This document shows positions 2,519 through 4,495 of a stretch of 48,182 bases of DNA, one piece after another. The notes under the pieces were generated by a model. That model ran no database searches, had not been told where the DNA came from, and saw only the letters and a list, made by a program, of their open reading frames with translations. The stretch comes from Promethearchaeota archaeon (lineage in GTDB: Archaea > Asgardarchaeota > Lokiarchaeia > Sigyniarchaeales > SOKP01): NCBI GenBank assembly GCA_048940645.1, contig JBHLOI010000027.1, forward strand, positions 1 to 48,182, in the 5' to 3' direction. Both the position numbers and the translations under genes were made by a program. Every line of letters starts with the position of its first letter. Within the stretch, counting starts at the first letter, position 1.

Positions 2519-3088
2519 ATGTCTCAAAAAGCCAAGGATTCAGAAGAACAATTCTCGTTTAAATGTCCCGCTTGTTCTGAAGGAACTGTAAATATACAAA
2601 AAACAGTTTACGACTTACCTGATAAGGATAAAATGCTTATTATCAAATTTGAATGCAATGAATGCAATTTTTCTAAAAATGATATCATTCCTTTAACTAC
2701 TAATTTTGATCCTGGCATTATAACTTTAAAAGTTATAAATGAAGAAGATCTTAAATCAAAAATTTATCGATCTCCTACTGGAAAATTAGAGATACCTGAG
2801 TTAGAATTATCTGTACAACCAGGACCTAATGCAGAGTTCTATTATACTAATGTTGAAGGGATTTTATATCGATTCGAAAGTGCTGTCTTACTATATAGAA
2901 ATAATTTAAAGAAATCTGATCCTGAAATTGAGGATGTAAATCAAATTTTAGAGGATATTAAAAAAGCACTTAATGGAAAATTGGAATTCACATTAAAAAT
3001 AACTGATAATGGTGGAGGGAGTTATATCATTCCATTTGATAAATCAAAATATCTTTTTGAAAAACTTGAAAATATGGAATTAGATTAA
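2519..3088 (+). CDS. ZPR1-type zinc finger protein (single archaeal module)
   Basis: CPAC...CNEC zinc finger, then RSPTGKLEIPEL and TNVEGIL typical of the ZPR1 A/B domain. Confidence 0.85.
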   Translation: MSQKAKDSEEQFSFKCPACSEGTVNIQKTVYDLPDKDKMLIIKFECNECNFSKNDIIPLTTNFDPGIITLKVINEEDLKSKIYRSPTGKLEIPELELSVQPGPNAEFYYTNVEGILYRFESAVLLYRNNLKKSDPEIEDVNQILEDIKKALNGKLEFTLKITDNGGGSYIIPFDKSKYLFEKLENMELD

Positions 3089-3276
3089 AATCTCCTTTAT
3101 ACTCAATGATAAGTTTTTAATAAAATTACCATAAATTTAATTTAAGATTAGTTTAGATTATTTTAAAAAAATAGGAATATTTTGCAATCAATAATCATTA
3201 TGATGTATTCCATCACAACTTTTTTAATTAAAAATTGCTTAATTAATTAGTCAAAATACCAAAATAAAATTTATAA

Positions 3277-3282
3277 AGGTGA
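3277..3282 (+). promoter_or_regulatory. Shine-Dalgarno site of pfk (AGGTGA)
   Basis: AGGTGA matches the archaeal anti-SD and lies 6 nt upstream of the ATA at 3289. Confidence 0.7.
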
Positions 3283-3288
3283 TTTTAT

Positions 3289-4495
3289 ATAGCTATTAAA
3301 AAGATTGGAATTTTAACGGGCGGCGGAGTCATGTTCAAGATTTTCCTTAACTGTCGTATACTGCCCTGGGTTAAATAGCGTAATTTATGGGATAATGTTA
3401 AAAGCTTATGATGCTGGGGTAGAGTGTGTAGGAATTCTTAAGGGCTGGAAAGGATTTATAGATAATGATACAATCCCTCTTAATATAGCCGAACATGATG
3501 ACTTACATACGGTAGGAGGAACAATTCTCTATACAAGTAGAACAAATCCTTTTAAAGGAATCACTTCAAAAGAAGAAAAAGCAAAAGAACTAGCAGCAAA
3601 GTTTAATGAATTAGCTATCGATGCCCTAATAGCTATCGGTGGAGTTTTAAAATAGTTTCTATTTTAAACTGAAGACGATACATTAGGGGTTGCGGATTCT
3701 TTGCACAAATTTGCCAAAGCAAAGGTTGTTGGTGTTCCAAAAACTATAGACAATGACCTTCTTGGAACACATTATACGTTTGGATTTTGGAGTGCTGTAC
3801 AGTTAGCTTCTAATACACTAGATAATCTAACAACAACTGCACATTCTCATCAAAGGGTGTTTGTAGTTGAAATAATGGGCAGAGATGCCGGCTTTCTTAC
3901 CATGTATAGTGGAATCTCTGCTGGTGCTGATATTATTTTAATCCCAGAGACTCCATTTGACTTTGAGAAAGATATTACTGATGTACTTAAAAAAAGAGCA
4001 ACTGCTGGTTATAAATATCATATTATTGCAATATCAGAAGGAGCATACCCTAACCTAAAGTCACTAGAGAGAGATTTTAAAACGATTTCTAAAGAAACTA
4101 TTGAAAAATTACCCAAAGATACATTTGGTAATCCATTATTAGCTAAATTAGGTATGTCTCAAATAATTGTTGATGAATTAAATTTACGAGAGGATTTGCA
4201 AAAAGAATTTAAAAGAAATGGAGTTGAATTTGAGTGCAGAAGCGTTGTTCTTGGTCATACTATGCGTGCTGGAACTCCTAATTCATTTGATAGAATATTA
4301 GGTCTAAGATTTGGATTAGCAGCTATGAAATTGGTATTAGAAGGCAAATTTGGGAATATGGTCTCATTACAAGGAAATCAAATTAAAGATGTACCTCTTT
4401 CTGAGGGAGTAAAAAAGAAATATATCACCGCGGAAAACGACAAAATGGAATTACGTGATTTATTAGTTAAAATAAGATACTTATCTAAACAATAG
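3289..4495 (+). CDS. pfkA: 6-phosphofructokinase (PfkA family, PPi-type signature), split by two introns; exons 3289-3328, 3360-3644, 3675-4495; 381 aa after splicing
   Basis: Joined exons read MAIKKIGILTGGGDCPGLNSVI...GGTILYTSR...ALIAIGGDDTLG...PKTIDND...VEIMGRDAG...LGHTMRAG. Exon total is 1146 nt (382 codons with stop). GGDD plus PKTIDND is the PPi-dependent signature. Confidence 0.92.
3329..3359 (+). other. Putative bulge-helix-bulge mRNA intron 1 (31 nt)
   Basis: Removal gives GGA G|AC TGC (GGGDC). Central helix GCGG(3323-26)/UCGU(3354-57), bulges AG^U and AU^A, internal intron hairpin, and exon-exon stem GGGCG/C(U)GCCC. Confidence 0.8.
3645..3674 (+). other. Putative bulge-helix-bulge mRNA intron 2 (30 nt, contains in-frame TAG)
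   Basis: Removal gives GGA G|AC GAT (GGDD). Exon stem UAUCG/CGAUA, central helix GUGG/CUGA, bulges AG^U and AG^A, perfect 10-bp intron stem 3646-55/3659-68. Confidence 0.85.

Follow-up and report, generated by a model that had tools for sequence, protein, structure and literature searches.

A 30-nt insert in the phosphofructokinase gene of a Lokiarchaeia archaeon is most probably an mRNA intron of the tRNA-splicing type

How can a gene still encode its enzyme when a catalytic codon is split by 30 nt that carry in-frame stops? This question is raised by a 48,182-nt stretch of DNA (the window), which is contig C37 of the 3.83-Mb metagenome-assembled genome (MAG; 126 contigs, 89.6% complete) of a Promethearchaeota archaeon, and which carries a phosphofructokinase gene (pfk, PF00365) with a zpr1-like gene on one side and an acyl-CoA dehydrogenase gene on the other. 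It is the one pfkA-type gene in the assembly, and is interrupted by two inserts only. Excision of positions 3645-3674 and 3329-3359 yields a 381-aa frame with no further lesion and with the motifs GGDD and PKTIDND, a combination that is usually tied to the use of pyrophosphate. For the PFK of a relative without the introns, the match to a solved PFK of 424 aa (PDB 44XA/9CIR, E 1e-144) extends over the full length, including GGDD. From the sequence, we consider it very probable that the second insert (intron 2) is an mRNA intron which is spliced in the fashion of the tRNA machinery, with cleavage by the splicing endonuclease EndA at a bulge-helix-bulge (BHB) structure. The parts of the gene are as follows.

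3289..3328, + strand: exon 1 of pfk, with an apparent ATA start and GGTGA at 3278-3282; relatives have ATG, TTG or GTG
3329..3359, + strand: the 31-nt intron 1, which shifts the frame and splits the Asp codon of GGG-D-CP in phase 1
3360..3644, + strand: exon 2 of pfk (PF00365)
3645..3674, + strand: the 30-nt intron 2, which splits the first Asp codon of IGG-D-DT in phase 1
3675..4495, + strand: exon 3 of pfk; the joined product has 381 aa

The apparent ATA start (3289-3291) lies 6 nt past GGTGA and directly follows an in-frame stop. At aligned starts in the source genome, ATA is the commonest non-canonical codon (8 of about 750, some of the open reading frames (ORFs) being spurious).

Around intron 2 the transcript can be folded into a BHB of the relaxed class, with these elements.

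3634..3638, + strand: 5' arm of the exon-exon helix, TATCG, pairing with 3676-3680
3639..3642, + strand: 5' strand of the central helix, GTGG, forming 3 pairs and a conserved G.A with 3669-3672
3643..3645, + strand: 5' bulge AG^U, predicted to be cut after 3644; the third base is U or A in relatives
3646..3668, + strand: intron hairpin of 10 bp, stem 3646-55 / 3659-68 with the 3-nt loop TTT
3669..3672, + strand: 3' strand of the central helix, CTGA, with one-sided changes G-U/G-C and U-G/U-A/C-G
3673..3675, + strand: 3' bulge AG^A, predicted to be cut after 3674; the middle base is G, A, C or T
3676..3680, + strand: 3' arm of the exon-exon helix, CGATA
3624..3688, + strand: the fold as a whole, with an outer exon helix (3624-30 / 3682-88) that the source genome has; z = -4.28, with 0 of 200 shuffles as good

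An earlier note on this DNA, made from the letters alone, had proposed the same exon stem, the same relaxed central helix (G.A, U-G, G-U, G-C), both bulges, the 10-bp stem closing a TTT loop, and IGG-D-DTLG as the product of excision; position by position we arrive at the same structure. The note spoke of one in-frame stop hidden by the hairpin, and a stop is indeed there, but the count is two (TAG 3653-55 and TAA 3665-67), the TAA being found in 19 of 19 carriers.

The case rests on comparison between genomes. An order-wide pattern search covered 135 genomes of the family and 19 genomes from other families of the order. A 30-nt insert occurs at exactly the intron 2 site in 21 of the 135 family genomes, distributed over three genera (11 of 41 genomes in the source genus, 9 in a second and 1 in a third), and in none of the 19 others. 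In 71 full pfk alleles, a sample enriched for carriers, intron 2 is present in 19 and intron 1 in 17; the alleles of two Lokiarchaeia MAGs, SOKP01 and Loki_b31, are identical to alleles from same-genus genomes. Once the introns are removed, every coding sequence is open and encodes about 380 aa (335 in one that is truncated by its contig end), and the ratio of nonsynonymous to synonymous substitution (dN/dS) is 0.05-0.12 in carriers, including the clade which shares the intron of the source genome, just as it is 0.05-0.12 in non-carriers. Between distant carriers synonymous identity reaches 0.81-1.00 at codons -4 to +1, the footprint of the BHB, and falls to background beyond. The full exon signature is found in 18 of the 19 carriers and in 0 of 52 non-carriers, six of which retain its 5' part. 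Cutting as predicted from the BHB restores the catalytic Asp in 19 of 19 carriers. It is because presence and absence are precise at the bulge-predicted cut, the spliced protein is under purifying selection and the footprint codons are fixed that we interpret the insert as a BHB intron.

The fold itself is also conserved. Over 18 distinct variants, which differ freely in the loop and at several positions of the stem, 98.9% of cells are paired in the exon-exon helix and 92.8% in the intron hairpin; for all helices together the value is 89.5%, as against 32-44% when the partners are slid. The covariation score was matched by 0 of 500 shuffles, and the BHB score of the site is attained by 0.05% of random coding positions. 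A looser scan on the motif, which coupled the BHB to the fusion of ORFs, gave 356 matches genome-wide, with intron 2 among its five high-stringency matches; its shifted-register controls gave 350-356, but since they were not independent of the test, the scan does not serve as a census. The BHB by itself is thus not diagnostic, and it is the comparative evidence that carries the case.

Intron 1 has a fully paired central helix and weak outer helices. At its site, relatives possess at least three intron sequences of 30-32 nt which are unrelated to one another and in each of which the central helix pairs fully; judging by these sequences, the site is one that has been occupied independently several times. 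In one genome (G121, contig C5) a dead 232-bp pfk fragment with intron 2 is present at a second locus (L215:1015-1246), 95% identical to the intact copy of that genome and with a different intron loop.

Several observations weigh against the splicing of intron 2. The earlier note described the BHB as near-textbook, which overstates its quality: the terminal G.A is unpaired in 18 of 18 variants, the central helix has 3 of its 4 pairs here and 2 of 4 in four variants (G028 and G005 carry such ones), and in ViennaRNA a slipped fold, which sequesters the 5' bulge, is the minimum-energy structure (-10.4 kcal/mol, vs -5.2 for the BHB conformer). Judged by its genomic features, intron 2 would therefore belong in every respect to the relaxed class, and to this class only, as the 4-bp central helix of the canonical BHB is lacking. 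The support from covariation is modest, with a two-sided change at one pair (A-U to G-C, 4 variants, in the intron hairpin), one-sided changes at eight, and kindred sequences throughout. The ATA codon, where relatives start with ATG, TTG or GTG, could mean that this single allele is weakened. A second pfk could also exist, because the assembly is only 89.6% complete.

The machinery that splicing would need is encoded in the source genome, namely the ligase RtcB and two EndA paralogues (on C2 near 15.4 kb and on C25 near 9.4 kb); the absence of EndA or RtcB had been put forward in the earlier note as a finding that would speak against splicing. One paralogue is alpha-like, possesses the Tyr/His/Lys catalytic motifs and has as its best solved match the crenarchaeal alpha subunit 3P1Z_B (E 5e-34), in an alignment which spans the loop and has the equivalents of Lys44 and Arg46 in place. 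The other lacks the His motif. In Aeropyrum the loop and Lys44 give EndA its broad specificity (PMC3241643), and two paralogues are found in most Asgard genomes (10.64898/2026.10.13.758758), with which the source genome agrees. The suggestion that a heteromeric EndA of broad specificity is at work is thus borne out at the sequence level, where the genome appears to have a two-subunit enzyme of this type.

We envisage that the pre-mRNA forms the relaxed BHB, the exon half of which comes from the codons for Ala-Ile-Gly-Gly-Asp-Asp, a step supported by sequence and conservation. From the known chemistry of EndA, which cuts between the second and third bulge base (PMC2738675), the two-subunit enzyme would then cut after 3644 and 3674. 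RtcB would ligate the exons, restoring GAC-GAT, and once intron 1 is also out a 381-aa enzyme of the PfkA family would be made. The excised 30-nt intron may be circularised, while translation of unspliced RNA would stop at 3653.

Of other explanations, programmed ribosomal bypassing, as in T4 gene 60 or the byps of yeast mitochondria, would have the ribosome hop over the hairpin and leave the RNA uncut. The insert does resemble such coding gaps (10.1101/2022.08.31.505936), being about 30 nt long, directly preceded by a GGA codon and furnished with a hairpin and in-frame stops. Yet bypassing demands matched take-off and landing codons (10.1101/2022.08.31.505936), and here GGA faces GAA, AAA, TAA or TGA. 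The middle base of the 3' bulge is free over four letters, so that skipping or removal in codon register would replace the catalytic Asp by Asn, His or Tyr in 10 of 19 carriers. The intron 1 sequences (30-32 nt) end out of frame, and exon-exon pairing 3' of the intron 2 insert is conserved. As only the cut phase predicted from the bulges restores Asp in all carriers, bypassing can be rejected as extremely improbable. Hardly more probable is a dead gene or an artefact, in which the insert would be the footprint of a small mobile element or an assembly error. The ATA at the start position, the 126 contigs of the MAG and the dead fragment in G121 are in its favour, but the insert is found in 21 independent assemblies and the carrier coding sequences are free of other lesions and have the low dN/dS given above. 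Within 6 mismatches there is no further copy of either intron in the source genome, tRNA introns included, and the apparent AG duplication at the insert is not conserved in relatives; for these reasons a MITE-like footprint (miniature inverted-repeat transposable element) was rejected. That the insert is cut out of the DNA in a programmed manner, or is removed by some enzyme besides EndA, we rate as low as bypassing: intron-less alleles do occur in relatives, but recombinase-type repeats are not kept at the ends, and the EndA cut rule (PMC2738675) fits the boundaries of seven inserts that are unrelated in sequence; six of them have a good BHB, the exception being the insert in a methionyl-tRNA synthetase gene (below). 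A group I or II intron or another Rfam family was also rejected, the insert being 30 nt long and positions 3200-3800 giving no Rfam match at E up to 1.

A different matter is how a spliced intron came to its present distribution. It may date back to the ancestor of the family and have been strongly conserved, with repeated losses and no lateral spread, which would concern its evolution and not its splicing, and which we think unlikely, if by no means far-fetched. Changes were counted on a tree of 71 rows, built without both intron sites and with the distant L141 and L142 left out; intron 2 requires 14 changes, at least 8 of them on well-supported branches, but such counts cannot separate gain from loss. 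The introns of cbf5 have been repeatedly lost (PMC2738675), and the 5' exon signature retained in six non-carriers also fits an ancestral intron. Against this, an identical 30-mer occurs in alleles at a synonymous divergence (dS) of 1-2 and across genera, where four-fold sites are about 40% identical, although loop and stem positions are free to vary. The exon around shared 30-mers is identical over only 4-19 nt on the 5' and 7-22 nt on the 3' side; the full empty-site signature, expected after a recent precise loss, is absent from all 52 non-carriers; and intron 1, with its weak inner stem, shows the same pattern of identity. We therefore lean towards short-patch lateral transfer as a better fit than conservation plus loss, while the tree gives no direction. 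In such transfer, recombination or gene conversion would carry the intron and a few flanking codons from one species to another, as a patch of DNA about 45-55 bp long.

Free-standing nucleases encoded beside pfk may help this spread, with support for intron 1 only. In five intron-bearing genomes an ORF with a LAGLIDADG domain (PF14528) is situated directly upstream of pfk. It varies from 370 to more than 900 aa with the domain at the C-terminus, is frameshifted in G028, and has homologues at unrelated loci (beside argG, beside a ferredoxin oxidoreductase gene and elsewhere). The window appears to retain a remnant, which aligns locally to the ORF L220 of G130 with a score of 130 (shuffle maximum 63).

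2519..3088, + strand: zpr1-like upstream neighbour, the landmark for spacer length
3153..3282, + strand: remnant of a LAGLIDADG-domain ORF, comprising the last 13 codons (stop 3192-94) and a trailer
L217:1501-2619 (G123), L218, L219, L220 and L228: LAGLIDADG-domain ORFs of variable length in the zpr1-pfk spacer, with two LAGLIDADG motifs

An altered spacer or a nuclease ORF is found in 13 of 25 carriers and 0 of 46 non-carriers, the trait having been defined post hoc. In independent pairs the link reaches significance for intron 1 (p 0.008), whereas for intron 2 it does not (median p 0.22). No viral contig with the intron pattern or a pfk of this type was found. Of 13 matches to the intron family, 12 are in pfk; a match in G006, considered as a transposed copy, was rejected as an intergenic A+T-rich chance match, and L055 (G017) is a chance match in an open frame.

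A second, unrelated ORF of 142 aa (L079:865-1290) was noted upstream of an intron-bearing pfk, with a remnant in L026; its weak DUF559/DUF2726-like, nuclease-type features (Atlas match 0.91) are a lead only. Elsewhere in the source genome (C119, 2136-4043) a 636-aa ORF adjoins an eIF2-alpha-like gene, and its LAGLIDADG domain matches the pfk-linked ORF with E 8e-23.

Similar inserts are present in other genes. In a motif-free census, about 1.3 Mb of the relative G018 (some 1,100 genes) were aligned to the source genome, revealing five clean frame-breaking inserts, all of 30-31 nt: two in pfk and one each in the genes for RNase HII, ribosomal protein S27ae and a small GTPase. Their BHB scores are 11-15 (null P 0.03-0.0005), compared with 2-9 for 13 ordinary in-frame indels. 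Two more inserts turned up in G018. The census misses inserts which are common to G018 or near gene starts, so the count is a lower bound; by extrapolation there might be some 15-20 such introns per genome. Inserts outside pfk are listed here.

Source genome C86, 1120-1149: BHB-type insert in the RNase HII gene
Source genome C88, 49919-49889: BHB-type insert in the S27ae gene
Source genome C52, near 78280: BHB-type insert in the small GTPase gene
Source genome C7, 33705-33676: BHB-type insert in a longin gene
L203:2166-2197 (G018): frame-breaking 32-nt insert beside the HIGH-like motif of methionyl-tRNA synthetase
L206:329-358 (G018): frame-breaking 30-nt insert with a perfect central helix in a gene for 575 aa

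No convincing BHB register was found for the methionyl-tRNA synthetase insert (L203). Internal stops in the RNase HII gene were counted, without individual inspection, in about 85 of 127 family genomes, two single-contig genomes among them, and in 0 of 17 genomes of other families.

BHB introns in archaeal mRNAs are known, in the literature that we searched, only from the coding sequence of cbf5 and from a 5' untranslated region (UTR) in Haloferax (PMC2738675, PMC7714728), and no report of mRNA introns in Asgard archaea was found there, subscription journals being outside that search. The cbf5 intron of Desulfurococcales and Sulfolobales (Yokobori 2009, PMC2738675; Watanabe 2002 as cited there) is likewise a short intron in coding sequence, with an unconventional, partly exonic BHB that is cut between the second and third bulge base, a hetero-oligomeric EndA and a lineage-specific absence. 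It differs in being one intron in one gene, inherited vertically and shown to be spliced by cDNA, whereas splicing of pfk is deduced from sequence, and the pfk case involves two introns in one metabolic gene, several genes per genome, an Asgard family, a patchy distribution and identical copies across genera. In Haloferax volcanii, the mRNA of HVO_1309 (PMC7714728) is also a substrate for the archaeal splicing endonuclease, but that intron is located in the 5' UTR, while intron 2 of pfk splits a catalytic codon and carries stops. The non-canonical introns described for Asgard archaea (bioRxiv 10.64898/2026.10.13.758758) are confined to tRNA genes, with Jordiarchaeia and Atabeyarchaeia as the intron-rich classes and no arrival route found. 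Like the pfk introns, from the same phylum, they are of similar length, have BHB boundaries, point to repeated gains, go with two EndA paralogues that fit an (alpha-beta)2 enzyme, and are deduced from sequence. A possible model of arrival comes from phages, in which free-standing homing endonucleases bring about the collaborative or trans homing of introns that lack an ORF (PMC2988022); there, too, the nuclease gene lies a few hundred bases away from such an intron, which interrupts a conserved catalytic motif. Collaborative homing is known for self-splicing group I introns, whereas the pfk intron would be spliced by proteins, and the pfk-linked ORF is a predicted nuclease with homologues at other loci and a link to intron 1 only.

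A bolder reading, to which we give slightly less than even chances, is that one Lokiarchaeia family routinely splices mRNA with tRNA endonuclease and ligase, including multi-exon core genes (pfk, RNase HII, S27ae, small GTPase), and that free-standing nucleases encoded nearby drive the gene conversion by which its tiny introns pass from species to species. If true, this would be a protein-catalysed intron invasion of prokaryotic coding genes, in relatives of the lineage that hosted the origin of eukaryotes. If confirmed, Asgard archaea would have multi-exon protein genes spliced by tRNA machinery, and core genes in MAGs would have been mis-annotated as pseudogenes or as absent. The pfk introns are not evidence for the ancestry of spliceosomal introns; a closer functional parallel is the splicing of HAC1 and XBP1 mRNA by IRE1 and RtcB. 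A 47-nt substrate and a defined EndA pair make cleavage directly testable in vitro, and the link to the nucleases suggests a way of gaining introns that is likewise open to test.

A further strong candidate is a 30-nt insert on the minus strand of source genome contig C72 (6720-6691); its helix has 4 bp, its two outer helices are also paired, and it joins two long frames at a VWA-like IVGDA motif. Among the tRNA genes, several were mis-called by ARAGORN, apparently owing to D-arm introns of about 30 nt, and tRNA-Sec is present (C101, 14409-14501).
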